From the IMG/VR virus record IMGVR_UViG_3300027851_000013: DNA of 64,000 nucleotides; one strand, 5' to 3'. Origin of the DNA: an uncultured virus (IMG/VR IMGVR_UViG_3300027851_000013) (lineage: Duplodnaviria > Heunggongvirae > Uroviricota > Caudoviricetes). Below, piece after piece: positions 1 to 32,112 of the stretch; the stretch's first letter is position 1, and each line of letters begins with the position of its first letter. Made by a program: the position numbers and the translations under genes. The notes beneath the pieces are model-generated. The model was given only the letters and a program-made list of their open reading frames with translations, ran no database searches and was not told the DNA's origin.

Positions 1-85
1 GTTATGGCGTGCGTTCTTCTCTCATGTAGAAGCTTCGGTTCCCCTACAGGACGCGGCCAACCAGTTTGGCGCTCGTATAGATGAC

Positions 86-610
86 TTGGAATTTATAGTG
101 TCTGTCTTAGGGACGGAAAAACCTAAATGGGTAAAGTACCCTAAAGACAAGCCCTTAGTGATAAAAACAAAGAGAAGAGTTAGAAAGCTGAAGGGAAACA
201 CAATACAGGGAACCTCTATGAACATTTCTACTCCCTCTCTTCCTCCTGATAGTGTAGATCTTATGTCTGTTCTTTCTCGCATAGATGAGCAGACTGGATC
301 TACCACCTTTTCTCGTGTCGCTTCTGCTTTCATCTGTCGCCTTGTAGAGTCCAAATCTTTTAGGTCCGCCTCTAAAAAGGCTTTGGCCGCAGGTGCTTCA
401 CCCGACGACTTGGATCTTGTATCTTCGTTTGCTCTCTCCGATTCTTTGGTTTGGAAAGCTTTCTGCTATCATTCTTACTACATAGGCGTTTCTCCTCAGG
501 ATTCTGCTCGTAAATTTGGAGTACCGGTACAGCACCTATCTGCTCTACTGAGCTACAAGCCGTTGGCTTATGTGTTTGAGTGGTCTTCTTGGCCTGATGA
601 CCTGGAGTAA
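86..610 (+). CDS. hypothetical protein (start uncertain)
   Basis: ORF co-directional and tightly packed with the next gene. Confidence 0.5.
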   Translation: MEFIVSVLGTEKPKWVKYPKDKPLVIKTKRRVRKLKGNTIQGTSMNISTPSLPPDSVDLMSVLSRIDEQTGSTTFSRVASAFICRLVESKSFRSASKKALAAGASPDDLDLVSSFALSDSLVWKAFCYHSYYIGVSPQDSARKFGVPVQHLSALLSYKPLAYVFEWSSWPDDLE

Positions 611-613
611 CCT

Positions 614-1153
614 ATGAACAGAGAAGATAGCTGGTTCACACTGTATAGCGGAGCCAGGTTTTACCCATTTAGGGACAACCTACAGGCCTCTATAGACATA
701 CACGATATAGCTACCGCCCTATCCAAGCTTTGCCGATTCAACGGTCACTGTAGATTATTTTACTCCGTGGCAGAGCACAGCGTGCATTGCTCTAAATACG
801 TCTCTCCCGAAAACGCCTTAGCAGCTCTTCTTCACGACGCAACTGAGGCATATGTCGGAGATCTTATTAGACCCATCAAAAGATTTATGCCAGACTTTGA
901 GGAATTAGAGGCTCGCATATGGGAATCCATAGCTCGTAAGTTCGGCCTTCCGTTGGACCTTCCGGAAGAGGTGCATGAGGCAGATAACTCTGTTCTTATG
1001 GCAGAAGCCAGAGATCTTCTGTACCCCGTTGGAGAGTTGAAGTTTTCCTACCTGAATGCCAGCCCTCCTCCAGGGCTAAATGTTAATGACCCACTTCTTC
1101 CAGCGCAAGCCCAGGAACTTTTTCTTACCCGGTTTGAAGAGCTTACTCGATGA
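614..1153 (+). CDS. HD-domain phosphohydrolase (YfbR/5'-deoxynucleotidase-like)
   Basis: RFNGH...YSVAEHS...ALLHDATEAYVGD motifs. Confidence 0.85.
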   Translation: MNREDSWFTLYSGARFYPFRDNLQASIDIHDIATALSKLCRFNGHCRLFYSVAEHSVHCSKYVSPENALAALLHDATEAYVGDLIRPIKRFMPDFEELEARIWESIARKFGLPLDLPEEVHEADNSVLMAEARDLLYPVGELKFSYLNASPPPGLNVNDPLLPAQAQELFLTRFEELTR

Positions 1154-1419
1154 AGAAGACCTTAGACGGTAGAAAGGTACACGTAAGTTCTTCTATGCTG
1201 TCCATGTCTTCTGTCAAAGACACGCGAGATAGACAGGTCTTTAGGGGCACATTTGATCCTGACAACGATCACAGGGGTGTGCTAATATTCATAGACTTCT
1301 TTCCTGAAGAATCGTTTCCTCACCTTTGTCGTTATATCTTTGTTCGAGACAACGGCTATCCTGAAGTCGTGGACTCTATTTTTGATCCTTCACTTGACAT
1401 ACACTTTCGTATCGTGTAG
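1150..1419 (+). CDS. hypothetical protein
   Basis: ATGA overlap with the upstream gene. Confidence 0.55.
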   Translation: MKKTLDGRKVHVSSSMLSMSSVKDTRDRQVFRGTFDPDNDHRGVLIFIDFFPEESFPHLCRYIFVRDNGYPEVVDSIFDPSLDIHFRIV

Positions 1420-1422
1420 TAT
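1394..1422 (+). promoter_or_regulatory. sigma70-like promoter for tRNA-Glu
   Basis: TTGACA-17 nt-TAGTAT, ending 5 nt before the tRNA. Confidence 0.6.
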
Positions 1423-1427
1423 TTCTT

Positions 1428-1503
1428 GGCTCCATCGTCTAGAGGCCTAGGACCGCGCCCTTTCACGGCGTTAACACGGGTTCAAATCCCGTTGGAGTCA
1501 CCA
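1428..1503 (+). tRNA. tRNA-Glu(UUC)
   Basis: Cloverleaf, anticodon loop CT-TTC-AC, GGTTCAAATCC T arm, encoded CCA. Confidence 0.95.
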
Positions 1504-1544
1504 AAACATATCGGGGCATAGCTGAGCTTGGTTATGGTATTTCT

Positions 1545-1982
1545 GTGAAACGTTGTTTAGTTTGTAACGTGGAAAAGCCAATAGACGAATTTCCTTATCT
1601 TACAAAGAGAAACAGGCATCTCTCTAAATGTAGAGAGTGCAAGAGATCCTACGACCGTAGGTATTGGAGTGGTACCAAGGAACTGAGGTTGGCAAGAAAG
1701 CAGTCTAACTTTGCTAAGTTGAGGATGCGAAATACCGAGTATATACTCAACATACTAAAAACCAATCCGTGTGCTTCTTGTGGCGAATCCGACCCCATAG
1801 TACTTGACTTTGACCACCTAGACCCTTCTACTAAGATAGAAAACGTGTCAAACCTTGTAGGTAGTGGCTGTTCTCTTAGAAGGATAAAAGAAGAAGTGAA
1901 AAAGTGTCAAATATTATGTGCCAACTGCCATAGAAGAAAAACAGCCAGAGAAAGGGGATACATTAGAATAAGTGCTCTGTAA
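1545..1982 (+). CDS. HNH homing endonuclease
   Basis: N-terminal CxxC pairs, then CASCG...LDFDH...CQILCANCHR. Confidence 0.85.
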   Translation: MKRCLVCNVEKPIDEFPYLTKRNRHLSKCRECKRSYDRRYWSGTKELRLARKQSNFAKLRMRNTEYILNILKTNPCASCGESDPIVLDFDHLDPSTKIENVSNLVGSGCSLRRIKEEVKKCQILCANCHRRKTARERGYIRISAL

Positions 1983-1991
1983 ATTACACAT

Positions 1992-2066
1992 CGAGGTGTA
2001 GGCTAACGGTCAGTCGCTAGTTTTGGGAACTAGATCAAGCAGGTTCGACTCCTGTCACCTCGACCA
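1992..2066 (+). tRNA. tRNA-Pro(UGG)
   Basis: CGAGGTG/CACCTCG acceptor, CTAGT-TTTGGGA-ACTAG anticodon arm, CCA. Confidence 0.9.
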
Positions 2067-2127
2067 TAAGATTAGGACAGACACAACGTCAGTTCGAATC
2101 TGGCTGCCCCGACCATATATGGTATTC

Positions 2128-2442
2128 ATGGAAAACGATTACCATATACTTAGACAGATAGTAAGCGCTGTGAGCGATCTTACAACTCGCCATTCCAACG
2201 GAGTGGAAAAGGGTTTCCTTCTTTCCTTCTCTATGTGTTTAGACGCCCTTTTAGAGTCACATGGTGATCCGTCTTCTTTCTCTTCTCTTAGAAGAAAATT
2301 TGATGGACTTCCCTCTTCTGGCAAGTCTGGCGTACTTTACTTGTCCTTACTATCGGTGTGCGACCTGGCCGTCTGTTTTTCTACAGAAGGCGCAGAAAAA
2401 TTGACTCTTTCCTTACTGTCTCTTAGACCCTCTTCCAACTAG
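2128..2442 (+). CDS. hypothetical protein (start moved to the ATG after the tRNA remnant)
   Basis: ORF; the longer 2023 start overlaps tRNAs. Confidence 0.5.
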   Translation: MENDYHILRQIVSAVSDLTTRHSNGVEKGFLLSFSMCLDALLESHGDPSSFSSLRRKFDGLPSSGKSGVLYLSLLSVCDLAVCFSTEGAEKLTLSLLSLRPSSN

Positions 2443-2484
2443 TTTCTTGTAAAAGACTCACCTACACCTAACAGGAGCCTGTCC

Positions 2485-3243
2485 ATGTCCTTGTCAAAGA
2501 GCGACTACGCCAAACTTCAATCTCTGTTGATTGAAGCCATAGTAAAGAGAAATTACTACGTCAGTCTAAAAAATGGGCCTATTCTAAACCTTGATGAAAT
2601 CAGAGGAATGTTGATGTTGATGGGGCTTAACAGCCTCGACGAAGTGGAGTCACATGACTCCTACAAGGGCATAGCTGTGCCCTCTTCTGATACACTAACT
2701 TCACCCTCTCCACAAGAGAACAGCACTCCTAGCTCCTCCTCTGAAGAAAAGGAATCTAGTGATTCTAAGAAGGGAAGAGGACGCCCTCGAAAGAATCCTG
2801 TAGAAGTTCCTTCGGACGAGGAAGAGGATACTCCGTCCGTCGCTACAAAGGCAACAACCACTGAGCCTTTGACTAAAAAGTCAGCAGCTCCCTCTCCTCA
2901 GGACGAGGATGAGGACGAGGATGAGGACGAGGAATCTCCGCCGAAAAAGGCTTCGAAAGCCCCCACAAAGAAAACTGCGCCGCCTCCTTCCGATGATGAG
3001 GATGAGGACGAGGATGAGGACGAGGAGGAACCTCCCCGCAAAGCCGTCAAGGTGTCCAAAGCCCCTCCTAAGAAGGTCGTTGAGGATGATGAGGATGACG
3101 AAGACGACGAAGAGGATGACATTCCTCCGCCGCGTAAAGCGCCTACCAAGCCTCTTGCCAAGGCGCCCGTCAAATCCAAGGCCCCAGTAGACGAAGATGA
3201 CGACGATGACTTCGATGACTGGGACGACGAAGAGGACGACTGA
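2485..3243 (+). CDS. acidic low-complexity protein with repeated DEDEDEDE and KKAP blocks
   Basis: RBS AGGAG; AT-hook-like KGRGRPRK; internal duplications. Confidence 0.75.
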   Translation: MSLSKSDYAKLQSLLIEAIVKRNYYVSLKNGPILNLDEIRGMLMLMGLNSLDEVESHDSYKGIAVPSSDTLTSPSPQENSTPSSSSEEKESSDSKKGRGRPRKNPVEVPSDEEEDTPSVATKATTTEPLTKKSAAPSPQDEDEDEDEDEESPPKKASKAPTKKTAPPPSDDEDEDEDEDEEEPPRKAVKVSKAPPKKVVEDDEDDEDDEEDDIPPPRKAPTKPLAKAPVKSKAPVDEDDDDDFDDWDDEEDD

Positions 3244-3249
3244 CCTAGC

Positions 3250-3296
3250 GCTGCAATAGAAAGAGCCCCTCAAAAAGGGGCTCTTTCTATTGCAGC
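3250..3296. terminator. perfect 21-bp inverted repeat, likely bidirectional terminator
   Basis: GCTGCAATAGAAAGAGCCCCT-caaaa-AGGGGCTCTTTCTATTGCAGC just after the stop codon. Confidence 0.7.
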
Positions 3297-3313
3297 AACC
3301 CTGCTCATACTAG
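3297..3313 (+). promoter_or_regulatory. putative phage promoter motif AACCCTG-NN-CATA (copy 1)
   Basis: Seven similar copies, all between genes or at gene ends. Confidence 0.6.
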
Positions 3314-3345
3314 ATGGGAGTACGCTTTCTTTCACAGGAGTATCC

Positions 3346-3753
3346 GTGTTTGATCTACTAGAACCTATGATTAGTTTTTCTTCGCAGAGACTTGACCACT
3401 GTTGGATGTGTGTCGAATGCCGCACCATCTTTGACGTCAAGTGTGCGTGTGCAGTTTGTGGGGCAGATAACTTTGTCCCTTATGTGGATAGGAGGCCCCT
3501 CCTTCTCTCTAAGGAGGTTAGGAATGCAGTAGTTAATCTCATCGACGAAATTGCAGATACGCTATCAGACCTAGACTTAGACTCCCAGTGTTTTTACACT
3601 AGTGAATACATGCCATTCCTCAGTGGTCTCTTAGACGAGGCAGCACATGCCTCCGAAGTTAGGAAATCCGGGTCCACGGGATATCGTACTACATCTTTGT
3701 CCGTGGAAGAGCTTCTGCCTCTCTTTAGATCTATGAAGAAACCCTGCAGGTGA
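3346..3753 (+). CDS. hypothetical protein with CxxC zinc ribbon
   Basis: CVEC...CAVCG. Confidence 0.55.
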   Translation: MFDLLEPMISFSSQRLDHCWMCVECRTIFDVKCACAVCGADNFVPYVDRRPLLLSKEVRNAVVNLIDEIADTLSDLDLDSQCFYTSEYMPFLSGLLDEAAHASEVRKSGSTGYRTTSLSVEELLPLFRSMKKPCR

Positions 3754-3960
3754 ACACATGTCAGATTGCTGCCGTGCCTCCTCCGTTGGTTCAGATAAGA
3801 AGCTTTTTGACGACTTGCTGTCAGTTTTGAGCCGCCTTTCTGCTCGTCCCCTTGATAAAGTTCTCATGGACATGAGCGTAGGAACAAAGTTGGCTGCTTA
3901 CACTCGTTTAGTTGAGGAGGCTAAAAGAATAGCTGAAGCCTTAGAGGAAATGGGGCACAC

Positions 3961-4521
3961 ATGAATTCAGTTGAAAACTCGATTCAAAAACTCAGAGAAC
4001 TGCTAGTAAAGTGCGGGTACAACAGAACTCACCACGCAGCAGTTTTACTTGCTAGATTGCGTAAGGCCGTAAAAGTTTCTGCCACCAAAACAGGAGTGTC
4101 TATGTCTAATGATGTCGTACGCCACTATGAGGAGTTACGTAGCCGTTTACTTCTAGACGGATTTGACCCAAACAGCAAAGTCATGAAGACAGTAGACCGA
4201 CTTAGACTTTCTCTACTGGAAGACGGATTTGACATGACATCCCCTGACGTTTCTCCTCCACTTTCTGAGGAGGCGCCAGAACACGAAAACGATTCCGTAT
4301 CGCAGTCTACTACTATAATTAAGGCTTTTCGAGCCGCACACCCACATGACATTTCTGTGTTGCAGGGTGTGTTTTCTTCCATCTCTGGTTGGAAATTCAG
4401 AGTGGTACACTCTAAGACTGCTGGTCCTTCTTTCGTGGTTGTACACAACCATCCCTCCATTACTCCCTCTCACGTAAAGGAGGCTATAAAAACTTACTTG
4501 TCTGAGGTTGGATCGCCATGA
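3961..4521 (+). CDS. hypothetical protein
   Basis: Member of a chain of overlapping ORFs. Confidence 0.55.
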   Translation: MNSVENSIQKLRELLVKCGYNRTHHAAVLLARLRKAVKVSATKTGVSMSNDVVRHYEELRSRLLLDGFDPNSKVMKTVDRLRLSLLEDGFDMTSPDVSPPLSEEAPEHENDSVSQSTTIIKAFRAAHPHDISVLQGVFSSISGWKFRVVHSKTAGPSFVVVHNHPSITPSHVKEAIKTYLSEVGSP

Positions 4522-5066
4522 CAGACACCTCTGTAGGAAACCTGTCGTTCGACCACTACACTCTAGAGACAGACGCGGAAAAGAATCTGGTTTCTTTGGA
4601 GGCTTCTCTTTTAGTCGCTGGGTACCATCCTTCTTCTGACACTATTCGCATACTTCATAAGCTAAAAAGGTCAATGAAGCGCAACAGGGTCAGGAGATAC
4701 TCTTTTTCTGTTCATCCCGTGGTAGTCACGTCCAAGCAAAGCACTCCTCCCTCTGCGGAACTCTGTTCTGATACCGAGGAGTTGTTCTTGGTAAGGGATA
4801 TAGTGGAAAAGTGTACAGGATTTGGAGTCAAATCCTACAAAAACAAAGTAACTAGCAGCGGACACAACCTCACAACATTTGTTCTGGCAGGTCCCTGTGT
4901 TGATCTTCTGTTTGACCCCGACTCACCTCTTCTTAGGGAACATTTGGCTTCATCCGTGCTAGAACACACAAAGAGTTCTCTTTCTTCTTTTTGCGTAGGC
5001 TCTACGTCTATTTCTAAGAAGGGTGACATGGTAGGAGTCAAAGTTCAGTGCGTGTACAGAAAGTAG
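4518..5066 (+). CDS. hypothetical protein
   Basis: ATGA overlap. Confidence 0.55.
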   Translation: MTDTSVGNLSFDHYTLETDAEKNLVSLEASLLVAGYHPSSDTIRILHKLKRSMKRNRVRRYSFSVHPVVVTSKQSTPPSAELCSDTEELFLVRDIVEKCTGFGVKSYKNKVTSSGHNLTTFVLAGPCVDLLFDPDSPLLREHLASSVLEHTKSSLSSFCVGSTSISKKGDMVGVKVQCVYRK

Positions 5067-5070
5067 TAAC

Positions 5071-5448
5071 GTGGCTAAAAAGAAGACTCCTCTGGCCTCC
5101 TCCATAGCTAAAGAGTGGGATGTCTCGATAGCAGCGAATGACTTGGTCGTTCTTCTATCGGATAGTGCGCCACATGTTTACCTTGTATTGGCTGTGTACC
5201 CCCGTATGGTTATGGAGCACGATCTCTACAATTCACCCAGTCTTTTGTCAAAGGGGTACAAACCGGGAGACGACCTTCCTCCACTGGTACACATTCGTAG
5301 AGTACGTATGGCCCCATTCTGGGACGCAATTCCTCCTGGACATACAGTAGACCGAAAAGTAGATGCCTTTGCTTTGTCAAAAATAACAAAAGAGCAAATA
5401 CGTTCTGTCATGGAAAACCTGGTCTCCATGATGCTGTCAATTTCTTGA
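5071..5448 (+). CDS. hypothetical protein
   Basis: Packed ORF. Confidence 0.55.
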   Translation: MAKKKTPLASSIAKEWDVSIAANDLVVLLSDSAPHVYLVLAVYPRMVMEHDLYNSPSLLSKGYKPGDDLPPLVHIRRVRMAPFWDAIPPGHTVDRKVDAFALSKITKEQIRSVMENLVSMMLSIS

Positions 5449-5490
5449 GCAAATCGCTATGTACGACATCTGATTGCGGGCAGGTATCAC

Positions 5491-6423
5491 ATGAATTTTT
5501 CTATCGATGACCACACCATCTATTTGACGGTTCACGGAAGTAGGGCCTACGGAACCAACCTAGATACCTCCGACACAGATTTCAGAGGAATAGCTATTCC
5601 ACCTAAGGAATACTTTTTAGGTTATTCTTTCGTTTTCGAGCAAAACGAGCAGCACGACCCTAACGACAAGGTAGTATTTGATATAAGAAAGTTCTTTAGG
5701 CTGGCCTCCGACTGCAACCCAAATGTGGTAGAGATACTATACACCGACCCTTCTAATCAAATTAAGGTCGATAAGTTAGGTGAAAGGCTTCTGGAAAACC
5801 GAGAACTATTCCTATCCAGAAAAGCTCGCTATACGTTTGCAGGGTATGCACACTCGCAGCTTAAGAGAATCAAGACCCACAGGTCTTGGCTTCTGTCCCC
5901 TCCAAAAGGCAAGCCTCTGCGCTCTGACTTTGGTCTTCCAGAGGAGGGAAATAAGATCGTTAGTGGGTCCACTATGGGTGCCTTTGACGAGTTGTCCTCC
6001 TCAGGCTATTCCTTTGGAAGTGACGTGATGCAGGTTATCCAAAAGGAAAAGCAGTACGCCAGCGCTCTTCATCATTGGCAGCAGTATGAAAAATGGCAGA
6101 AGAACAGAAATAAAGATAGAGCTGCCCTGGAGGCTCAGCATGGCTTTGATACTAAGCACGCTCTTCATTTGATAAGGCTGCTTAGGATGTGTGTCGAAAT
6201 TCTGTCGGGTAAGGGGGTCATTGTTCGACGTCCTGACTTCGAGGATCTTCTGGCCATTCGTCGCGGAGAGTGGACCTACGATAAACTGATAGAGGAAGCC
6301 GAATCCCTGGATGCTGAGGCGGCGCGTCTCTACGAGTCTTCGCCCCTGCCAAAGAACCCTCCTGTACACAAGCTAGATGCCCTTTGTATCTCGTTGGTGG
6401 AGGAGTGGCTATCTAGAAAGTGA
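5491..6423 (+). CDS. Pol-beta superfamily nucleotidyltransferase (RlaP/YcgL-like)
   Basis: GSRAYGT...SDTDFRG, NPNVVEIL, and DTKHALHLIRLL motifs. Confidence 0.85.
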   Translation: MNFSIDDHTIYLTVHGSRAYGTNLDTSDTDFRGIAIPPKEYFLGYSFVFEQNEQHDPNDKVVFDIRKFFRLASDCNPNVVEILYTDPSNQIKVDKLGERLLENRELFLSRKARYTFAGYAHSQLKRIKTHRSWLLSPPKGKPLRSDFGLPEEGNKIVSGSTMGAFDELSSSGYSFGSDVMQVIQKEKQYASALHHWQQYEKWQKNRNKDRAALEAQHGFDTKHALHLIRLLRMCVEILSGKGVIVRRPDFEDLLAIRRGEWTYDKLIEEAESLDAEAARLYESSPLPKNPPVHKLDALCISLVEEWLSRK

Positions 6424-6432
6424 TAGTTTGTC

Positions 6433-7455
6433 ATGTCATCCCAGCTACTGACACGAGAAGAATTTAAGTCACAGGTTTTTACCCGTGACTCTCATAGGTG
6501 CGTTCTCTGTTCTAGTCCTGCTGTTGACGCCCATCACATTATAGAGCGCAAGCTATGGCCTGACGGTGGGTATTATCTAGACAACGGAGCTTCAGTGTGT
6601 GCTTCTTGTCATCTGCTTTGCGAAGAAACAAAAGTATCTTGCGAAACTCTAAGAGAAAAGTGCGGAATAAGAAAAGTCATTCTGCCTCCTCATTTCGATT
6701 CCTCGTCTCGATTTGATAAGTGGGGCAATGTGTATTTATCCTCCGGGCTCAGAACTCCGGGTGAGTTGTTTTTTGAGGAGCAGGTTCAGAAGATTCTTTC
6801 TGATTCCTTACACGAATTCACTCACATAATAAAATACCCCAGGACTTATCACTTGCCATGGTCGCCTGGTGCTACAAGCGATGATAAGACGCTGGAGTCA
6901 GTCAGCCAGTTTGAGGGTAGGGAAGTAGTGGTTACGGCCAAAATGGATGGCGAGAACTCCTCTCTTTATAGGGACCACATACATTCACGGTCATTATCCT
7001 ACACGCCTCATGAATCTAGGAATCTTCTCAAATCTCTTTGGTCCCAGATCAGGTATGATATACCCGATAGATGGAGAGTTTGTGGAGAAAACCTTACTGC
7101 AGTTCATTCCATAGCATACACAAACCTATCTCACTTCTTTCAAGTTTTCTCCATATGGAATGAATGGAATGTGTGTCTCTCTTGGGATGACACTGTGTCA
7201 TGTGCTGACATGCTTGGGTTACGCACTGTTCCTGTTCTATACCGAGGAATCTGGAACGAAAACGTACTCAAAGAAATCGACGTGTCTTCTTTGGACGGAG
7301 ATCCATGCGAGGGTTACGTTGTTAGAGTGGCATCAGATTTCAAATACTCTGAGTTTCGTCGTTTAGTAGGCAAGTTCGTTCGGAACAACCATGTTCAAAC
7401 AGATCAGCACTGGATGAGAAAAGCTGTTACGTTTAATGGATGGGTCGAAGGATGA
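6433..7455 (+). CDS. ATP-dependent RNA ligase with N-terminal HNH-like zinc domain
   Basis: KYPRTYHLPWS; motif I KMDGEN, III CGEN, IIIa FQVFSI, IV EGYVVR, V KFVR; N-terminal CxxC..DAHHI..CxxCH. Confidence 0.85.
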   Translation: MSSQLLTREEFKSQVFTRDSHRCVLCSSPAVDAHHIIERKLWPDGGYYLDNGASVCASCHLLCEETKVSCETLREKCGIRKVILPPHFDSSSRFDKWGNVYLSSGLRTPGELFFEEQVQKILSDSLHEFTHIIKYPRTYHLPWSPGATSDDKTLESVSQFEGREVVVTAKMDGENSSLYRDHIHSRSLSYTPHESRNLLKSLWSQIRYDIPDRWRVCGENLTAVHSIAYTNLSHFFQVFSIWNEWNVCLSWDDTVSCADMLGLRTVPVLYRGIWNENVLKEIDVSSLDGDPCEGYVVRVASDFKYSEFRRLVGKFVRNNHVQTDQHWMRKAVTFNGWVEG

Positions 7456-7555
7456 CCTAAATTTTGGTTATATTCTTTTTTGGTGGATAGGAATCCACAT
7501 ACAGTACTGTAAATAGAGACTGTTCTAGTCAACGTGACTAGAGAAAGGCATCATC

Positions 7556-8278
7556 ATGACAAATCCGAACTACACTCACATCTCCATTCTTATCGACGAG
7601 AGCGGCTCCATGCAGCACCTGGCCGCGGACACCATAGGAGGATTCAACTCTTTTATTGAGGAACAGCGCTTGGTGGAGGGAAAGGCCACCGTTTCTGTCC
7701 ATACCTTTTCTACCCGAAGGAAAACTCTTTCTTCCATGGTTCCAATAAAAGAGGCAACCTTGCTCGATCGCGCTTCTTACTCCCCCAGCGGAGGGACTGC
7801 CCTAAACGACGCTTTGGGGCAGTCTATAATCGACCTAGGAAAAGATCTTTCGGATCTTCCCGAGGAAGATCGCCCAGGTAAGGTTCTTTTTATTGTAATC
7901 ACGGATGGGGAAGAAAACTCGTCTTGCTCTTTTTCGAAGGAGCAGGTAAAATCCATGGTTGAGCAGCAGGAATCTATCTATAAGTGGAACTTTATCTACC
8001 TCGGAGCTAACGTAGATAGTTTTGCAGAAAGTTCTTCCATAGGAATAAGAGGGGCTAACACTCTTAACTACGACGCCTCTGCGGAGGGTATACGTGGTAC
8101 GTACACCGTACTTTCGGGAAGTATAGGCTCCTCCAGGATTCACGCGAAATCCGATGCCTCACTCTCTTTCTACGGCCAAGCATCTGATGTAGAGGCAGCC
8201 CGAGGTATAGACTTCGATCAGGTATTCAAGATTCAGAGCGCCACTAACGGAGATCAGGACCCCGGTTCTACCCCCTGA
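7556..8278 (+). CDS. vWA-domain protein
   Basis: MIDAS motifs DESGSM, GGTALNDA, ITDGEEN. Confidence 0.9.
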   Translation: MTNPNYTHISILIDESGSMQHLAADTIGGFNSFIEEQRLVEGKATVSVHTFSTRRKTLSSMVPIKEATLLDRASYSPSGGTALNDALGQSIIDLGKDLSDLPEEDRPGKVLFIVITDGEENSSCSFSKEQVKSMVEQQESIYKWNFIYLGANVDSFAESSSIGIRGANTLNYDASAEGIRGTYTVLSGSIGSSRIHAKSDASLSFYGQASDVEAARGIDFDQVFKIQSATNGDQDPGSTP

Positions 8279-8281
8279 TGG

Positions 8282-8306
8282 AAGCCCCCTTATTGGGGGC
8301 TTTTTT
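8282..8306 (+). terminator. intrinsic terminator
   Basis: AAGCCCCCT-tatt-GGGGGCTT followed by a T run. Confidence 0.75.
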
Positions 8307-8327
8307 GTAGCCATCCTAGAACGAAAC

Positions 8328-8345
8328 GAACCCTGCTCATAGTAT
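8328..8345 (+). promoter_or_regulatory. putative phage promoter motif (copy 2)
   Basis: GAACCCTGCTCATAGTAT upstream of the 8374 ORF. Confidence 0.6.
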
Positions 8346-8373
8346 AGACCCACCCCGCAAAAGGGAGGCTTAA

Positions 8374-9498
8374 GTGGGACGTTCTTGGATTGTAGAAAAT
8401 AAGTGGACTTGCTATTCCTGCGGGTCTAAAAACCTTGGCAGGGACATGCGATGTTCTACTTGTGGTTCCCCTAAGGAAAAGGGAGAGAAGTATAATCCTG
8501 GGGGTTCCACGCCTGTCACCGACCCAGAGTTGCTCAAGCAGGCATCTGCAGGTCCTAACTGGACGTGTAGATTTTGCTTTAATGACAACCGCGCCCTTTT
8601 GACTTCTTGCCGAGTGTGTGGGGCAAGTAGGGATCCTTCCGAACCTCCGCCTGCCCCTAAAAAGAGGTCAAAGGCCACAATCATTCCTCCCCCAAGAGCA
8701 GCATCCACTGCTCCCTCTCCTGCTCCCTCTCTAAGGGAGAGTCCTAGATATGCGGTGCTTATCGAGGAGAAGAGTTTATTCTCCACTCTACGAAAGAATG
8801 TTGGACTAATTCTTCTTTGTTTGGCTGTTTTGTCTTCTTTTGTAATTCTTTGGGTTTTGTTATCCACTCATGAGGTAAGGGCGGAAGTACGGTCTACCTC
8901 CTGGGAATACAGGAAAATCCTGGAACAGAGGATGACTAAATCTGGCTCCGGCTGGGGGACTCCTTCTGGGTCTTTTAACGCATCCTGTCACACCAGACAG
9001 AGAGGCACAGAGAGATGCCATCCTAGAGATTGCAATCCACATCAGGTATCTTACGATTGTCGACCACACGACTGTAGTTGTCACGTTAGTTGCACTGATC
9101 TCTCTAATGGTTACTCTCGCTGTGAGGAACACTGTTCTACGTGTTACGACACTTGTACACGGACAGAATACAACACCTGTTACGATGAGTGTCCTGTATA
9201 CGATGAATGGTGTACTTATTCCTACTATGAGTGGGACGAAATAGACCGAGAAGTGACGCGTGGTACAAATGACGAGCCTCATTGGGGCAGCAGGATTTCA
9301 CCTAATGAATCCGTGCCCCAAAGAGTGATCAAGTCCGAATCCTACAGCGTAATCTTCTATGCTGATGAGGAGGAGTGGACATATCATCCTTCTTCCCTTC
9401 GAGAATACTCATCTTTTTCTACTCAGGATTCTTGGTTGATTGAGGTAAACTACGCCGGAATGGTCTGGCCTAGAAGACCTCAACAAGAAAATCGCTGA
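8374..9498 (+). CDS. membrane protein with two RanBP2-like zinc fingers and a Cys-rich C-terminal domain
   Basis: WTCYSCG..N....CSTCG and WTCRFC..N....CRVCG; Pro-rich linker; one transmembrane helix. Confidence 0.75.
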   Translation: MGRSWIVENKWTCYSCGSKNLGRDMRCSTCGSPKEKGEKYNPGGSTPVTDPELLKQASAGPNWTCRFCFNDNRALLTSCRVCGASRDPSEPPPAPKKRSKATIIPPPRAASTAPSPAPSLRESPRYAVLIEEKSLFSTLRKNVGLILLCLAVLSSFVILWVLLSTHEVRAEVRSTSWEYRKILEQRMTKSGSGWGTPSGSFNASCHTRQRGTERCHPRDCNPHQVSYDCRPHDCSCHVSCTDLSNGYSRCEEHCSTCYDTCTRTEYNTCYDECPVYDEWCTYSYYEWDEIDREVTRGTNDEPHWGSRISPNESVPQRVIKSESYSVIFYADEEEWTYHPSSLREYSSFSTQDSWLIEVNYAGMVWPRRPQQENR

Positions 9499-9509
9499 AA
9501 GGTGCCTAC

Positions 9510-10424
9510 ATGTCTCAATTGTCTACCCTGGCTCATCCCGTGACTCCGCTGACTGCCTCTTTGCCTCCTGCTGTGGCAGCAATCCTCAAGGTGGCCAAAG
9601 ATACCCGAGACCTCGACGGACGAGTGGAGTATACCCTGGACATCGACAAGGGTCTTGCTTCTCTCCTGCTAGAAAACAGGGACGAATGCCAGCGACGAGT
9701 TTCCAGGGAACGTGTACTGGAGCTTCGTACTGATATCGAAGCTGGAAAATGGATTAACACTGGTGATTCTATTCGTCTGTCTCCTACGGGAACTCTCGTG
9801 GACGGTCAGCATCGCCTCACTGCGTTTGTCTCCTCCAACACTCCGCCGCATTTCATTCTTAAGGACATGACTGTTGTTCTTTTGAAGAGTGCTGCGGCTC
9901 TTGATGTAGTGGACACCGGAAAGAGCCGCACTCTCAGCGATCTGCGCAAGATGACAGGCCGTAAGGCAGTTTCGGGGCGGATCATTGGCGGAATTCTTTT
10001 TGAGCTTCGCTCTTTCGACCAGAAGGACAACTTGTCTAAGATGAAGCGCAACGAGGTTGTGGACAACCACCCCTTTCTGGACGACCTCGTAGACATGGCA
10101 TCTCCTAAGAACGGGTTTACACTAGCGTCTACTCCCGTGATTGCTGCTGCTATCCGATGCATGCGTGTACCGGGAGCGAAGGACGAGGCCCTTGCGTTCT
10201 TCCAGGCAGTCGCCCAAAACCGACACGCCATTGACGGAGTTACCATTCCTCAGATTGAGCTTCTTACGAACTGGCTGTTGACTAACCAGCACTCGGGCGG
10301 AGGTCACGCTATTCGTAGAGAAACCGCTGCTCGGTGTATCTCTGCGTGGAATGCTTATCGTCAAAAGCGGAAGCTGAACCACCTTCGCTACTCCAAGGCC
10401 AACGAGTTCCCCTCTCCCGTGTGA
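9510..10424 (+). CDS. ParB-like N-terminal domain protein
   Basis: LVDGQHRL motif, VVDTG..R. Confidence 0.7.
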   Translation: MSQLSTLAHPVTPLTASLPPAVAAILKVAKDTRDLDGRVEYTLDIDKGLASLLLENRDECQRRVSRERVLELRTDIEAGKWINTGDSIRLSPTGTLVDGQHRLTAFVSSNTPPHFILKDMTVVLLKSAAALDVVDTGKSRTLSDLRKMTGRKAVSGRIIGGILFELRSFDQKDNLSKMKRNEVVDNHPFLDDLVDMASPKNGFTLASTPVIAAAIRCMRVPGAKDEALAFFQAVAQNRHAIDGVTIPQIELLTNWLLTNQHSGGGHAIRRETAARCISAWNAYRQKRKLNHLRYSKANEFPSPV

Positions 10425-10518
10425 TGCTAAAGTTAGCAGTGTTAGGCGAGAGGTCGTCTAACACTGCTAACTACCTTGTTATTTTATCTACGTTCCCACC
10501 TCATCACACAGGAAGGGG

Positions 10519-10833
10519 GTGTACGTGGGTAAAACAAAAGAAGACAAGAAAAAGCACGTTCATAGTAAGCAGCAGAAAATTTGGAATTATCTCTCCCAGC
10601 ATGAGTGTGAAATGTGTGGTGAGAGAGACCCTCTTGTCCTTGAGTTTGACCACCTACACAATAAAAGAGTAGACATATCGAAATTGATAAGATCTACCAC
10701 ATGTAGTTGGAACCATCTTCAGTTAGAGCTTGACAAGTGTCGCGTCTTGTGCTCTAATTGCCACAAGAGAAAGACACATCAGGAGTCTAACTCTTACCGC
10801 TACCGATTTCTACTACTGGCGCAAGCAGGATGA
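10519..10833 (+). CDS. HNH endonuclease
   Basis: CEMCGE...LEFDH...KCRVLCSNCHK. Confidence 0.85.
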   Translation: MYVGKTKEDKKKHVHSKQQKIWNYLSQHECEMCGERDPLVLEFDHLHNKRVDISKLIRSTTCSWNHLQLELDKCRVLCSNCHKRKTHQESNSYRYRFLLLAQAG

Positions 10834-11039
10834 CACACCTCAAACCTAAACGTTGAGACCTTAGCCATGCATGGCAAGTCCTATATGGAATCCATCCTGG
10901 CTTATCTCCTGCTATACGTTTTTGGCGTAGTGTCTGGCTTCATACTTCTTTTAGTGCTGGATAGCCAGTATGTTCCATGGTGGGAGATAACTAACTACAT
11001 CTTTCCCTCCCGCATACAGCATTGGCTCTTGTGGGGCAC

Positions 11040-11115
11040 AGGACCGTAGCTCAGTCGGTAGAGCAGTGGACTTTTAATCCAACGGTCGAGGGTTCGAGCC
11101 CCTCCGGTCCTACCA
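11040..11115 (+). tRNA. tRNA-Lys(UUU)
   Basis: Cloverleaf, CT-TTT-AA loop, CCA. Confidence 0.95.
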
Positions 11116-11186
11116 AGAATAGACCTTTGTTTGACAGGTGAATCACCCCTCTGCTACCTTATTTAGGAGAGTAGAGGAGGTGCCTT

Positions 11187-11672
11187 GTGCGTAAACCAAA
11201 GGAACCGGCGTGTAAACACACCAGTCTTCTAAAAAGGTTTGACAAGATAAACCTCGAATTTTTTGGGGGTATGGTGTGCGGAGGAATAGGTTGGCGCCAT
11301 CTTCCTCTAAAAAGTAAGTATACTGCCCAAGCCTGCTGTGTATTCGAGGAAAGGTTGATAAAGGTCAACTCTTTTATGGACGACATTCGAATACCTTTGT
11401 GGTATTTAGACTTTGTCATCTACCATGAAATGCTTCATCTTCAACACGGGCCTCAGCAATTTTCTCCGGATGGGAAGCCATATCCGCATAGTTTGAGATT
11501 TCAGTGCATGGAGATAGCACATCCTGACTACCAAAAAGCTTTAGAATTCGAGAAAGTAAAGCTTCCTAACATCATAAGTAGTTGGATACGGTGGAGAGAT
11601 TGGAACAGAAAGTCTAAACCTAGCGGTGTAAAAGACACTCAGGTCAGATCTGCCGCCAAGAAAACTAAGTAA
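11187..11672 (+). CDS. SprT/M48-like zinc metallopeptidase domain protein
   Basis: VIYHEMLH...H..RF. Confidence 0.7.
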   Translation: MRKPKEPACKHTSLLKRFDKINLEFFGGMVCGGIGWRHLPLKSKYTAQACCVFEERLIKVNSFMDDIRIPLWYLDFVIYHEMLHLQHGPQQFSPDGKPYPHSLRFQCMEIAHPDYQKALEFEKVKLPNIISSWIRWRDWNRKSKPSGVKDTQVRSAAKKTK

Positions 11673-11694
11673 ATACCTACTATTTAGCCTTCGC

Positions 11695-12417
11695 ATGACG
11701 ACGAGAATATCAAAGCACGACCCTTCCAGAAATGGATACCAAAAGAAATATCAGAAGAAAAGGTATCATGAACGTAAAAAGGAAGCTATTGATATATTAG
11801 GCGGAAAGTGCTCTGTATGTGGTTCTACCTCTAATTTGGAATTCGACCATAAGAACCCTGATGGTAAATCCTTTACTCTCACTAAGTTATGGTCCGTGCC
11901 CGAAGCGGAATTCAAAAAAGAGTTAAAGAAGTGTCGCCTTTTATGCAGGAAACACCATCTAGAAAATACTGGAAAGCAAAGGGAAAACGGTACAGTAAAA
12001 TCCGAACCTGGCAAAAGCCAGTATGGGAAAGACAATAAAAAGAAGGCGTACACGCTAAGCCTTCAGCTCCTCAAGCTTTCGAAGAAGGTTTCCCTTCAGG
12101 AACTTGCCAAAGATGCCTCTTCAGTCGCATCTTCCGTTGCCTCTTCTTTCGACGAGGTTAAGTCTGCCTCCGCTTCTTCCTTTCGTAAGTCCGATAGAAT
12201 CGGTCGTCCAGTCATCACCTGGAACGTGTTCAGAAAGGAAAACGGAAATCAGGTTTTGTTTACTGTGTATGGGCGAGAAAGGGACACAGATACGGTAAAC
12301 AAAATAGTGTCTTCCCTGAAAGAAAAATTAGGTCATTTTGGTGCTATATTGGAGTACGAAGATGACCTAAGTGAGCCAGGTCTTCTCGTAAAGGTTGTTT
12401 CAGGAGTACACACGTGA
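11695..12417 (+). CDS. HNH endonuclease domain with C-terminal extension
   Basis: GGKCSVCG...LEFDH...CRLLCRKHH. Confidence 0.75.
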   Translation: MTTRISKHDPSRNGYQKKYQKKRYHERKKEAIDILGGKCSVCGSTSNLEFDHKNPDGKSFTLTKLWSVPEAEFKKELKKCRLLCRKHHLENTGKQRENGTVKSEPGKSQYGKDNKKKAYTLSLQLLKLSKKVSLQELAKDASSVASSVASSFDEVKSASASSFRKSDRIGRPVITWNVFRKENGNQVLFTVYGRERDTDTVNKIVSSLKEKLGHFGAILEYEDDLSEPGLLVKVVSGVHT

Positions 12418-13624: not shown

Positions 13625-14020
13625 TCTGCTCAAGTCCATGGGACTTGAGTTAGGGAAAGAGAACAAGTTCAAGTTCAACTTGAATATGGGTACGATCGGG
13701 TGCAGGTTCGAATCCTGCCCTCCCCGCCATTTTATGGGGAGGTAGCCCAACTGGAAGAGGCTAGTACCCCTCAATCCCTTCGTTAGTCTATTCTCTAATC
13801 TTGGAGACCCGAATCGATCGCCATCTCAACCTCTCGTTTACCCTTGCCTAAGATGATGGTTCAACTCCATCCCCCTTCGCTCAGCAACCAAATTCTTTTG
13901 GTTGCTGAGCGAAGGGGTGGTCTAATGGAATGACATAGGCACTTAGATCTAAAAAACGAGATTAAATGTCGTTGGCGTGAAAAAATGAAACGGGTACCTA
14001 CTAAGTAGGACTACATCTGG
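13625..14020 (+). ncRNA. large structured RNA with two circularly permuted tRNA-like modules (13688-13769 and 13845-13941); ends approximate
   Basis: Each module runs T arm, loop-closed acceptor stem, D arm, inside a closing helix; no ORF in the region. Confidence 0.75.
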
Positions 14021-16794: not shown

Positions 16795-16895
16795 GCGACG
16801 AATGCTGAAGGGTATACATTGCACCAAAAGAGCGAACGCTGGTTCGATTCCAGCGAAAAACGGGATGGTTCCCTACTCTTCCTTTCTGTCGTCGC
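16795..16895 (+). ncRNA. Y RNA-like gene A (T arm only)
   Basis: GCGACGA-ATGC...TACAT...TTCTG-TCGTCGC terminal stem; GCTGGTTCGATTCCAGC T arm. Confidence 0.75.
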
Positions 16896-16899
16896 ATTT

Positions 16900-16974
16900 T
16901 CCGGGGTGGCGCAGCGGTAGCGCGGTCGGCTGTTAACCGATTGGTCGTAGGTTCGAATCCTACCCCCGGAGCCA
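16900..16974 (+). tRNA. tRNA-Asn(GUU)
   Basis: Cloverleaf, CT-GTT-AA loop, CCA. Confidence 0.95.
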
Positions 16975-17021
16975 CGTAGCTTAGTGTTAGATTAAAGCAC
17001 TATTCAATGTAAAATAGTGCT

Positions 17022-17507
17022 ATGAATAAAAGAGAACATGCTATCTACGTTAGAGAACGACGTTCACGGCTAAAGAAAGCTATTGTAAAGCTGGCTGGAG
17101 GTCGGTGTCGTATTTGTGGCTATGACAAATGTAGTGCTGCCTTGGAGTTCCATCACCCTGGAAGCGACAAGGACTTCGGTCTGTCCTACAAGGGTTTGTT
17201 CAGAAGCTTTTCCTCGATCGCAGAAGAAGTGAGCAAGACTGTTCTATTGTGTGCTAATTGTCACCGTGAGATTCACAATATACCAGGTGTAGAGTGTCCT
17301 TCTCCTATTCTTCTTTCGGAGGACGACCTTCGGCGTAAGGTTCACTCCCTAGAAACTAGGTCACCTCGTATAGAGGGGTTCCATCATGGAACTAGTAGCG
17401 GATACAACCTACATAAATGTAGGTGCACCCTGTGTAAGTTGTATCATAAAGAGGCAGCGGCCAGGTACAGACTTAAGAAGAAAACACCTCCGGAGCCATG
17501 TAGCTGA
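17022..17507 (+). CDS. HNH homing endonuclease
   Basis: GGRCRICGY...ALEFHH...LLCANCHRE; C-terminal HGT..GY....CRC..C. Confidence 0.88.
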   Translation: MNKREHAIYVRERRSRLKKAIVKLAGGRCRICGYDKCSAALEFHHPGSDKDFGLSYKGLFRSFSSIAEEVSKTVLLCANCHREIHNIPGVECPSPILLSEDDLRRKVHSLETRSPRIEGFHHGTSSGYNLHKCRCTLCKLYHKEAAARYRLKKKTPPEPCS

Positions 17508-17511
17508 TTTT

Positions 17512-17666
17512 TAGGTGAATGCTGAACGATCTACATAAAGATCCTAAGGTAGCGATGTCCTCTCCCTGAGAGGGCTAGTGAGGGCAACCAAGGCAACAAG
17601 GTGCTCGTCTCCACTGCCTTCCTTGTGAAGGTAAGGAGGATAGATTGTTCAATTCTCTGTCACCTA
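17512..17666 (+). ncRNA. Y RNA-like gene B (non-tRNA inner domain)
   Basis: TAGGTGA-ATGC-T-GAACGATCTA-CAT...TAGATTGTTC-AATTCTCTG-TCACCTA. Confidence 0.7.
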
Positions 17667-19813: not shown

Positions 19814-20016
19814 GCCCCTGAAGTTCAAAAGGAAGAACACCGGAAAAACGGAGCCGGGCCGTAAATGGCATCTAAGCACCTGCCTATAAAGCAGGGAAAC
19901 CTTAAGGTTGCAGAGGCACCGAATGGCACTGAGGACCAGGGTCGCTAGGGAAGCGCGTTTCCTAATTCTAGGTTTTGGTTTAGGTGGTGGAAGTTCGAGT
20001 CTTCCCAGGGGCGCTA
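19814..20016 (+). ncRNA. tRNA-like RNA with about 150 nt of structured sequence replacing the anticodon arm
   Basis: GCCCCTG/CAGGGGC acceptor, GTTC/GAAC D stem, GGAAG-TTCGAGT-CTTCC T arm. Confidence 0.7.
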
Positions 20017-21885: not shown

Positions 21886-22383
21886 ATGAACATTTGTTAC
21901 GCTCTAGAACCACTCACCTACACGTCCTTCAGCATATTTCTCGCAGGTCCTACTCCTCGCGACTCTAACGCTAAGTCTTGGCGCCCTTCTGCTGTGAGAG
22001 AACTGGAGAGTATTTTCGGGAAGACGGACAACGTTTGCCTGTTCTACCCAGAGGATAGGACAGGTACGTTTCACGGTAATTACGATCACCAAACTGAATG
22101 GGAGTATCTGGCCATATCCTCTTGCAACTTACTTCTGTTCTGGGTTCCAAGATCCCTGTCAGAAGGAATGCCGGGCTTTACTACCAACGTAGAATTCGGT
22201 TTATGGCTTCGGGACAAGGATATAGTTTTTGGGTATCCGGAATCGGCCGAGAAGATGACCTATCTTACTTGGCTTTACGCTAAGGAGAAAAGAAAAATTC
22301 CTTGTTCTTCTCTGTCCGAAGCAGGACAGGAAGCCTTGTGGTACTATACAAAACACTGTAAAGAAAAAGGTATGGGGCTGTAG
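21886..22383 (+). CDS. nucleoside 2-deoxyribosyltransferase-like protein
   Basis: SIFLAGPTPR...SWR...WE...FWVPR...PGFTTNVEFG. Confidence 0.8.
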   Translation: MNICYALEPLTYTSFSIFLAGPTPRDSNAKSWRPSAVRELESIFGKTDNVCLFYPEDRTGTFHGNYDHQTEWEYLAISSCNLLLFWVPRSLSEGMPGFTTNVEFGLWLRDKDIVFGYPESAEKMTYLTWLYAKEKRKIPCSSLSEAGQEALWYYTKHCKEKGMGL

Positions 22384-23026
22384 CTCAGCTGGGAGAGTAA
22401 AGTTAGAAGAGATCTTACTCTCACTTATGATTTAAGTGTGGAATACGATCTTCTTGAATCTTTAGTAAACGAAAAACTATCAATACAGAACATTGCTAAG
22501 CGTTTAGGCTGCAGCAAAGGACGTATACGTTATTGGCTCGTAAAGCACAAGTTAAAAACTGATCCGTACCTTGCACACCCTAATTGCCTACGATGTAGTA
22601 CTCCTCTAACCAACAAACGTAGTCATTATTGTAGTAATAGATGCCAGTTTGATTATCAGTATAATCTATACATCGAAAAATGGGTTTCAGGAGAAGTTTC
22701 AGGACATATTAACAATGCGCAGAAGCAGCTTTCCTCTCATGTAAAACGTTGGTTGTTTGACCGAGCAGATTCTAAGTGCGAGAAATGCGGATGGGCTGAG
22801 GTCAACGAAGTAACGGGGAACATACCTCTTCAGGTCGACCACATAGATGGTAATTGTCTAAATACTGTACCATCAAATCTTAGGCTGCTTTGCCCAAACT
22901 GTCATAGTTTAACTCCAACATGGGGAAATTCGAACCCATGTGTGGGGCGAAGACGGTTGGGCATTCACTAGGCTCCTACACTCGTCTAGGTACAAAGATG
23001 GGGTTCGATCCCCGTCAGCTCCACTA
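22374..23026 (+). pseudogene. split tRNA-Ala (5' half 22374-22398, 3' part about 22980-23026) interrupted by an HNH gene
   Basis: GGGGCTG-TAGCTCAGCTGGGAGAG pairs with GGGTTCGATCCCCGT-CAGCTCC-A; G3:U70 pair. Confidence 0.8.
22438..22971 (+). CDS. HNH homing endonuclease with N-terminal HTH
   Basis: IAKRLGCSKGRIRYW; LQVDHIDGN...NLRLLCPNCHS. Confidence 0.9.
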   Translation: MEYDLLESLVNEKLSIQNIAKRLGCSKGRIRYWLVKHKLKTDPYLAHPNCLRCSTPLTNKRSHYCSNRCQFDYQYNLYIEKWVSGEVSGHINNAQKQLSSHVKRWLFDRADSKCEKCGWAEVNEVTGNIPLQVDHIDGNCLNTVPSNLRLLCPNCHSLTPTWGNSNPCVGRRRLGIH

Positions 23027-25753: not shown

Positions 25754-25877
25754 GTGCCAAATGCTGTAAAGACTACAACTGTCGCGTGCTGGTTCGATTC
25801 CAGTCCACCTCGGAAACGATGTGGTAGCTCAAATGGTAGAGCAATAGTCCAAACGTCTTTATAAATCCTGTTGGCAC
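25754..25877 (+). ncRNA. Y RNA-like gene C (YrlA-type, full tRNA-like module)
   Basis: GTGCCAA/TTGGCAC and GTAAAGAC/GTCTTTAT stems; T arm GCTGGTTCGATTCCAGT, closed acceptor CCAC/GTGG, D arm GCTC/GAGC. Confidence 0.85.
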
Positions 25878-25880
25878 TTT

Positions 25881-25955: not shown

Positions 25956-26031
25956 GCCAGGTAAGCTAATCTAGTGAAAGCGTTTGACTGAAGATCAAAA
26001 GAGTTCGGAGCGTAACCGAAACCTGGTGCCA
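25956..26031 (+). tRNA. tRNA-Phe(GAA) with non-canonical T loop
   Basis: TTTGA-CTGAAGA-TCAAA anticodon arm; T arm TTCGG-AGCGTAA-CCGAA; CCA. Confidence 0.8.
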
Positions 26032-26869: not shown

Positions 26870-26989
26870 CCCACATCTCTGGAGAGCTTCTGCTACTTGA
26901 GTCCTGAAAACCGGGCTCATAACGCCACCTTAGGTCCGTTGTAGTTACGTACTAGCAGAATCCGGGTTCAATTCCTGGGTGTGGGGCCA
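26870..26989 (+). ncRNA. tRNA/tmRNA-like small RNA ending in CCA, lacking D stem and anticodon arm
   Basis: CCCACAT/GTGTGGG acceptor plus GCCA; T arm CCGGG-TTCAATT-CCTGG; 8-bp helix TTCTGCTA/TAGCAGAA. Confidence 0.7.
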
Positions 26990-27423
26990 AAAGTTTTTAT
27001 CATGATTCGCTTGCTATCTCTACTCCTTTTGTTTTCTTGCGCTCCGGCAATACCTCCAGAGCCCACCTGTAGACCTGTACTTTGCGCTCCGGATCACTAC
27101 TTTGATTCTCACTTCTGTGCCTGTAAGATTCGACCCGATGCTTCCTCCGAGTGAACTATCAGAGAACCAACGTCTCCTCTCTGAAGAAGTAATTCGCTTG
27201 TGCGTAAAGGAACATGGATCTCACCCTGTAGTGGGTTGGGAGGTATCTCTGTGGAGAGCCTCCTTAGGTCAAATTCGAATTGAATCCCTATCCTATCCAG
27301 AGATGACTCACCTTCTATCCCTTGCCCAGAAGGCAGGAGGATGGGTCTTTTGGACTTCGGAGGGCCACACCTTTTATCCTGTAAAGGATTGGTTGAATCT
27401 TCTCAAGTCTATTGGGGTGTGAA

Positions 27424-32103: not shown

Positions 32104-32112
32104 ATATGTTTC

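Follow-up and report, generated by a model that had tools for sequence, protein, structure and literature searches.

Homing endonucleases of conserved RNA genes usually reside in self-splicing introns or are encoded between genes. In tRNA genes, group I introns interrupt the anticodon loop in bacteria, and bulge-helix-bulge introns or split tRNAs occur in archaea. For phage tRNA clusters, the tested precedent for homing is SegB of T4, presented in the accessible portions of three sources as an endonuclease that cuts within tRNA genes and drives the inheritance of its own gene together with the flanking tRNA genes (PMC2330249, PMC2988022, PMC13096335). According to the available parts of other studies, no kind of open frame is commoner than HNH genes within the tRNA arrays of Mycobacterium, its phages and cyanobacteria, and a role in the spread and diversification of these arrays is suspected (PMC5966550, PMC8421152, PMC7589089). 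In fungal mitochondria, mobile endonuclease ORFs (mORFs) with a foreign gene end are described in the accessible text of a further source for atp6 of Allomyces and for atp6, atp9, cox2 and nad3 of Glomus (PMC3630166). A literature search that covered main texts, few of them from subscription journals, returned no description of a tRNA gene interrupted by both an HNH gene and a spare tRNA.

Here, we analyzed such an arrangement in an uncultured virus. The window, the whole stretch of DNA that was analyzed, spans 64,000 nucleotides and belongs to a 133-kb virus contig estimated to be 34% complete; coordinates refer to the window, and the features of the locus all lie on the plus strand. Judged from its sequence and from related phages, the locus is probably a split-and-replace variant of free-standing homing, in which a cassette made of an HNH gene and a tRNA-Pro sits in the anticodon loop of an outer tRNA gene.

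A tRNA gene split at the anticodon loop

ARAGORN placed 20 tRNA genes in the contig, all of them at window positions 1428-41692. The first, an intact tRNA-Glu(UUC) at 1428..1503, ends 8 nt before the 5' piece of the outer tRNA gene. This piece, at 1512..1546, supplies nucleotides 1-32, namely the acceptor strand, the D arm (with three G-U pairs in its stem) and the 5' strand of the anticodon stem, and its final two bases are shared with the HNH start codon. The 3' piece, at 2072..2115, supplies nucleotides 33-76: the anticodon-loop remnant, the 3' strand of the anticodon stem, the variable loop, the T arm, the acceptor strand and A73, followed by an encoded CCA whose last base is 2115. The acceptor strands at 1512-1518 and 2105-2111 form 7/7 Watson-Crick pairs with C1-G72 and A73, exactly where the original prediction had placed this 7-bp stem; it had also recognized both halves but called them too short, the 5' piece extending to 1546 and the 3' piece starting at 2072, not 2088. 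A sigma-70-like promoter match (10 of 12) at 1394..1422, just before tRNA-Glu, likely starts a transcript carrying the whole unit; 5 sigma-70-like sites were counted in 1000-3500 against 2.4 ± 1.7 in shuffles, an excess that is weak alone.

The pieces were joined in silico with 5' ends from 1533 to 1552 and 3' starts from 2060 to 2089, giving 367 joins of 70-95 nt. The top join, 1546/2072, obtained an ARAGORN score of 116.6 (79 nt, anticodon TAG). The third best, 1544/2072, scored 112.0 at a normal length of 77 nt with the Pro anticodon AGG, and its register makes the insert begin exactly at the HNH start codon. Under identical scoring, 21 tRNAs of the window ranged from 94.5 to 125.8, including 112.7 for the intact tRNA-Pro carried by the insert (the inner tRNA-Pro). 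The joined outer pieces score in the range of this phage's real tRNAs, and together they make up a whole tRNA gene, split at nucleotides 32/33. The 1546/2072 join folds into a complete cloverleaf whose anticodon loop has 7 nt, the 5' piece providing U32, and its oddities are an additional base ahead of the anticodon stem and one U-C mismatch within that stem. A strict split-pair pattern occurred once in the window and in none of 60 first-order Markov simulations of it, and a partner for the outer acceptor strand arose by chance at 0.0005 per 1400 simulated nt. A tRNA-Phe(GAA) with an intron, called by ARAGORN at 1512-2115, was rejected: its anticodon is taken from the HNH start and its score, 109.8, is below the 116.6 of the 1546/2072 join. 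Annotation calls for caution here, since such relics can escape standard tRNA finders or pass as intron-containing tRNA-Phe.

C1-G72 and A73 are identity features of tRNAs of the Pro type. A pattern made of the outer T arm and acceptor strand alone selected 45 stretches (1 viral, 44 from metagenomes), one of which, the window's own contig, was left out. At the other 44 loci the anticodon was NGG in 44/44 and ARAGORN called Pro in 40/44; the four remaining loci were cut by contig ends (three) or degenerate (one). In a set of 262 distinct tRNAs, from loci chosen by their HNH gene and not by the outer halves, the closest two to the outer ends were Pro, matching at 30 and 28 of 37 positions, and the mean match was 22.9 for Pro, the largest group with 25 members, and at most 20.2 for the other isotypes. 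By these comparisons the body of the outer gene is proline-type.

The anticodon tells another story. The stretch 2072-2077 is one base away from a Pro(UGG) loop, which yields the TAG anticodon of the 1546/2072 join, and the remnant reads TAG or AGG according to the register, not TGG. The same base was found in 3/3 other strains, and AGG was the anticodon in 0/28 Pro calls at other loci. The proposal that the inner tRNA replaces a gene of the same identity thus holds at best for the Pro body and amino-acid family, and fails for the anticodon. Between the outer gene and the inner tRNA-Pro, 43/79 aligned positions are identical (54%), against 60-61/79 between the outer gene and three unrelated intact tRNA-Pro genes; the inner tRNA-Pro is therefore not a local duplicate of the outer gene.

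Further tRNA-shaped elements were observed elsewhere in the window. By eye, those at 19814-20014 and about 26872-26990 (+) have paired acceptor strands and a T arm, with a long insert replacing the normal anticodon arm. A tRNA-Met-like element at about 32240-32312 and a tRNA-Phe at 25956-26031 (+), the latter scoring 94.5, have odd T loops and were missed by default ARAGORN. YrlA-like permuted tRNA mimics lie at 13677-13787, 25754-25880 and 31980-32106 (+), with 28.9-51.2 bits for an Rfam cut-off of 69; a further one, at about 13840-13947 by eye, is in tandem with the first, and a TROVE/Ro60 gene is located near 32807-34430. Similar T-loop hairpins with a common flanking motif stand shortly before a tRNA gene at about 16825-16870 and 25775-25830 (+), the second within a YrlA-like match and the first without one.

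The insert and its HNH endonuclease gene

The insert, at 1547..2071 (525 bp; 1545-2071 in the alternative register), is composed of the HNH gene (1545..1982, GTG start, 145 aa, PHROG 2255), a 9-nt spacer after the HNH stop, an intact tRNA-Pro(UGG) with an encoded CCA (1992..2066, ARAGORN; 52.4 bits in Rfam) and a 5-nt tail up to the 3' junction. The ORF, ARAGORN and Rfam results agree with the original prediction, which had put an HNH gene and a complete, divergent tRNA-Pro(UGG) at these positions between the halves. Throughout the 133-kb contig, no tRNA-Pro other than the inner one was found.

The ORF and the inner tRNA occupy 511 of the 525 nt, with 14 nt outside both, leaving no room for a ribozyme core; no group I intron core was matched by Rfam in the insert at E ≤ 1, nor over 1-12000. 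At the insert junctions no bulge-helix-bulge was found in any of three registers, the central helix having 2, 2 and 3 of 4 pairs and the flanking helices 0-2. A closing helix, a terminal repeat and a target duplication were all sought at the insert ends and none was found. Overall, the insert carries no splicing element, and the HNH gene lies outside any intron or intein. In sequence, the insert appears to bring a divergent copy of the gene that it interrupts and to leave the native part behind as a relic, as do elements of the mORF type. The outer D arm (1532-1538) and the inner CCA end (2063-2069) are complementary over 7 nt, which was attributed to chance, the pairing probability being 0 and the match being broken in one strain.

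The HNH protein matched the phrog_2255 profile with an E value of 2.9e-37. Residues C76, C79, the D88 region, D90, H91, C125, N127, C128 and H129 were invariant or conserved in 30 homologues, and the conserved core comprises D88-H91, N127, the H129 region and the Cys pairs. This profile match and the conserved, presumably catalytic and zinc-binding, residues place the protein in PHROG 2255. No match to Pfam HNH was obtained at E 0.01. The predicted model reached a pLDDT of 95.8, and a single-sequence model with a pLDDT of 45.8 was set aside. The top Foldseek rows included HNH nucleases, with 0 at E ≤ 0.001, and VIA-align gave weak matches to Hpy99I (Z 5.0, 37 residues, rmsd 1.8) and to Gme HNH (Z 4.0, 65 residues, rmsd 4.1). 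In one homologue, P0068, the protein tail looks by eye like the in-frame translation of a tRNA T arm, so that the stop codon of this gene may lie beyond a downstream tRNA.

Two other gene arrangements were observed in the window. At 5491-6423 and 6433-7455 (+), a gene for an RlaP-family nucleotidyltransferase adjoins one for a fusion of a short HNH domain and an RNA ligase, forming an RNA-repair pair. At about 28610-30800 (+), a DNA-ligase-like frame has, by eye, an intein-like interruption.

HNH relatives in other phages and in strains of the virus

We analyzed 63 viral loci with a relative of the HNH gene. An ARAGORN tRNA was present in 18, within 700 nt in 15, and absent from 45, many of which are weaker partial matches; a split tRNA was found in 1/63. 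The PHROG 2255 HNH family is not tRNA-bound. Behind the match of the closest two relatives among these loci (45% and 44%), a tRNA-Pro arm lies at 26 and 62 nt. The tRNA-Pro behind the HNH gene of locus L001 is odd and was missed by ARAGORN, and in locus L014 a tRNA-Val is split, by eye, around a second tRNA-Val and an HNH gene; odd T loops were also noticed in the tRNAs beside the HNH genes of both loci. Among cultured phages, which are partly related, 472 records matched, and 10 regions were taken from the 30 best while avoiding duplicates. A tRNA-Pro stands beside the HNH gene in 6/10 of these regions, a count of non-independent cases, and in most of the 10 the HNH gene lies between intact tRNAs. 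PHROG 2255 HNH genes adjoin tRNA-Pro in cluster C, L and M mycobacteriophages. In phage Sham, two tRNAs labelled Trp (782-853 and 1337-1409 of region L115) flank the HNH gene and have the TGG anticodon of tRNA-Pro.

Closely related Streptomyces phages with and without an insert were then compared. NootNoot has one intact tRNA-Thr(UGU) and is 99% identical in this region to Paradiddles, which, like Leo04, carries a net 510-bp insert within tRNA-Thr(UGU), where the T arm starts. First in this insert come a divergent T arm and 3' end by which the tRNA is completed, and the HNH gene (36% identical to the one studied here) follows; the native T arm and 3' end stand behind the HNH gene as a relic. 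SaltySpitoon, at a different site, carries a pair of tRNA-Pro genes and lacks an HNH gene. In JimJam an HNH gene lies between two tRNA-Pro, the downstream one having a new anticodon stem (69/77 compared to SaltySpitoon), and PumpkinSpice has a different member of the HNH family and a wholly different downstream tRNA-Pro (49/77 compared to SaltySpitoon); the upstream tRNA-Pro is identical across the three phages. The altered downstream genes would fit co-conversion. In the sequences of these cultured relatives, the insertion of this HNH family, its direction and the replacement of a tRNA can all be read, as support rather than proof for the locus studied here, and the family, patchily present beside empty alleles, is seen to enter and leave the tRNA clusters of phages. 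These near-identical pairs with and without a same-family insert (Paradiddles/Leo04 and NootNoot; JimJam/PumpkinSpice and SaltySpitoon) make the mechanism testable.

The HNH family matched five stretches in the contig itself. One of them, at 17013-17507 behind a tRNA-Asn, is flanked by a 34-nt direct repeat (16962-16995 and 17486-17519, +, 79% alike), which includes the 3' end of tRNA-Asn and, from its sequence, is a relic of the Paradiddles type.

DNA near-identical to the locus was detected in runs from wastewater, sludge and other environments. We compared contigs of 4 of the 24 listed runs, one of them an RNA run with thin cover. The cassette layout was present, free of joints, in the contigs of three DNA runs, each from a different other study, and one strain contig spans 1133-2100; the layout is therefore not an assembly artefact. 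The HNH gene has five variable sites among strains, three of them amino-acid changing, with 0 stops and a frame open throughout. In three strains, 0 substitutions were found in the outer pieces and inner tRNA, and the tail has a difference at 2067 in one strain; with so little divergence in this part, the intact halves do not inform on selection. Upstream of the locus, the divergence was significantly higher in two runs: 14/399 upstream versus 2/959 from 1389 on (Fisher p 2e-6) in one, and 15/428 upstream versus 6/890 downstream (Fisher p 3e-4) in the other. This step near 1290-1390, from about 3.5% upstream to less than 1% from about 1390, of which one edge is visible, would fit a recent sweep or a conversion tract left by co-conversion, among other causes.

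The original prediction had expected an uninterrupted CGGGGCA allele in relatives, and pattern scans, a sister search and the strain contigs disclosed none. The 5' patterns had 0 matches in viral contigs and in genomes; the 3' pattern, own contig aside, matched only ordinary tRNA-Pro genes of other organisms; and the anticodon-arm pattern, in both registers, gave 0 viral matches and 5 genome matches at places with no tRNA. Searches with the downstream ORF or the second HNH gene returned no sister phage. By blastn, 1400-2200 matched 106 records of cultured phages, none covering 80%, and the best 30 of the 106 rows were matches to the tRNA-Glu region only. Polarity and junctions at this locus are consequently deduced rather than read from an empty allele.

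Readings of the locus and comparison with known systems

In the split-and-replace reading, a free-standing HNH gene would have been linked beforehand to a downstream tRNA-Pro, and the 525-bp unit of both would have been copied into a break in the anticodon loop of a resident proline-type tRNA gene. The predicted enzyme would nick or cut tRNA-Pro-like DNA of co-infecting phages and spare the cassette allele, whose site is split and whose inner tRNA-Pro differs in its stems; repair would then copy the cassette across, so that it homes as a unit. The inner tRNA would be freed by host RNase P and 3' trimming, and the outer pieces would be a young relic giving no working tRNA. From the sequence, the cassette most likely kills the outer tRNA gene and stands in for it.

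The idea of a homing cassette that brings its own replacement had already been put forward in the original prediction. It gains from cultured phages, where a same-family HNH gene is seen to insert and to restore the tRNA, and loses some of its generality in the virus itself. A tRNA-Ala-type gene at 22374-23026 (+), with a G3-U70 acceptor, a D arm and a T arm, is split by an HNH frame at 22384-22971, the best match of which is PHROG 1271, another family, and which brings no spare tRNA. This gene is decayed (best join 98.2), and the contig yielded no further tRNA-Ala. Replacement is therefore not obligatory, and a phage tRNA can, it appears, be lost without rescue.

This tRNA-Ala, split by an HNH gene of another family without a spare, is also an argument for a history in two steps, in which the HNH gene alone broke the outer gene, and the inner tRNA-Pro joined later or hitch-hikes without a role in homing. 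Phage tRNA regions are, moreover, often dispensable, as the available part of a T4 study indicates (PMC2330249), and the HNH gene of JimJam lies between two tRNA-Pro already present in HNH-less sisters. We nevertheless consider such a history rather unlikely, as the closest two HNH relatives are directly trailed by a tRNA-Pro, the HNH gain in JimJam and PumpkinSpice goes with a changed downstream tRNA-Pro, and just 9 nt (from the HNH stop) and 5 nt (to the 3' junction) surround the inner tRNA.

The outer pieces might instead be kept as a tRNA-shaped RNA, the acceptor helix, once the inner tRNA has been excised, pairing the 5' piece, on the HNH message, with the 3' piece. In a folded precursor, five of the seven pairs of this helix had a probability near 1, but the same computation gave 0 for the outer anticodon and T stems, and long-range folding is unreliable. 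Such an element would damp HNH translation, the start codon lying in the anticodon stem, or would serve as a decoy or Ro60 partner. In keeping with this, the GTG start overlaps that stem, the genome combines a TROVE/Ro60 gene with three YrlA-like tRNA mimics below the Rfam cut-off, and translational masking was proposed for segB in the accessible text of the T4 study (PMC2330249). However, a recent relic would look intact without any selection, and the parallel Ala relic, with a best join of 98.2, is visibly decayed. Both the retention of the pieces and these roles are, in our view, unlikely.

That, upon release of the inner tRNA, the outer pieces are trimmed and joined or held by phage RNA-repair enzymes, giving a second tRNA with a Pro body and a UAG or AGG anticodon, is quite improbable, and we judge in the same way the part of the enzymes invoked for it (RNA ligase, RlaP-like transferase, and Ro60 with YrlA-like RNAs). 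If the outer pieces were reused, the phage would possess a mobile, ribozyme-free tRNA intron, with two tRNAs and a nuclease per nested gene. Finally, the nested precursor that the original prediction offered as its alternative, with the insert removed as an intron and the halves religated into a second tRNA, perhaps by the phage RNA ligase, is highly improbable and gained no support: the best join does lose no tRNA nucleotide, and the genome does encode an HNH-RNA-ligase fusion and an RlaP-family nucleotidyltransferase, but there is no Rfam intron in 1-12000, no room for a ribozyme core, a bulge-helix-bulge failing in three registers, no RtcB found in the contig (estimated 34% complete), predicted ends of RNase P and 3' trimming (1991 and about 2067) that fall off the junctions, and a best-join product, a Pro body with a UAG anticodon, that tRNA identity rules mark as poor.

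Split-and-replace homing would give endonucleases a third route into a conserved RNA gene, in which the gene is broken and a different copy is brought in. It would account for duplicate, divergent and oddly shaped isoacceptors in phage tRNA arrays, and could spread and swap tRNA variants, some of them countering host tRNA-cutting defences.

Bacterial group I and archaeal tRNA introns are alike in interrupting the anticodon loop while leaving both exons complete, whereas the insert described here has no ribozyme core and no bulge-helix-bulge, and contains a complete tRNA. T4 SegB is likewise encoded by an intronless gene in a phage tRNA operon and is co-transcribed with tRNAs; unlike the present HNH, it is, in the available portion of its description, a GIY-YIG enzyme that lies between intact tRNA genes and recognises a T-loop motif (PMC2330249). 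Here, the HNH gene interrupts the anticodon loop of a tRNA gene and is accompanied by a spare tRNA. Aeh1 mobE in nrdA and T4 mobA in gene 60 are also intronless HNH genes in a critical part of a gene, but their split products are reported, in the accessible part of the source, to reassemble and work (PMC2988022); at our locus there is no sign of the halves reassembling, and a spare copy is supplied. The HNH genes of tRNA arrays are described, in the portions available, as adjacent to tRNAs, not as splitting a tRNA around an HNH gene and a spare (PMC5966550, PMC8421152, PMC7589089). A likeness in logic exists with mORFs, where, in the text accessible, an endonuclease enters a conserved gene and brings a divergent replacement part, the native part becoming a relic (PMC3630166); the tRNA-Thr layout of Paradiddles and Leo04 is exactly alike. 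The mORFs of that source differ in encoding LAGLIDADG or GIY-YIG enzymes, in residing in protein genes of organelles, and in a replacement that consists of a gene end joined to the host gene (PMC3630166), whereas here a second tRNA gene, entire, would be the replacement and the native halves would both be relics. To these systems the present case adds an anticodon remnant other than TGG, a twin without a spare elsewhere in the genome and testable pairs of cultured phages.
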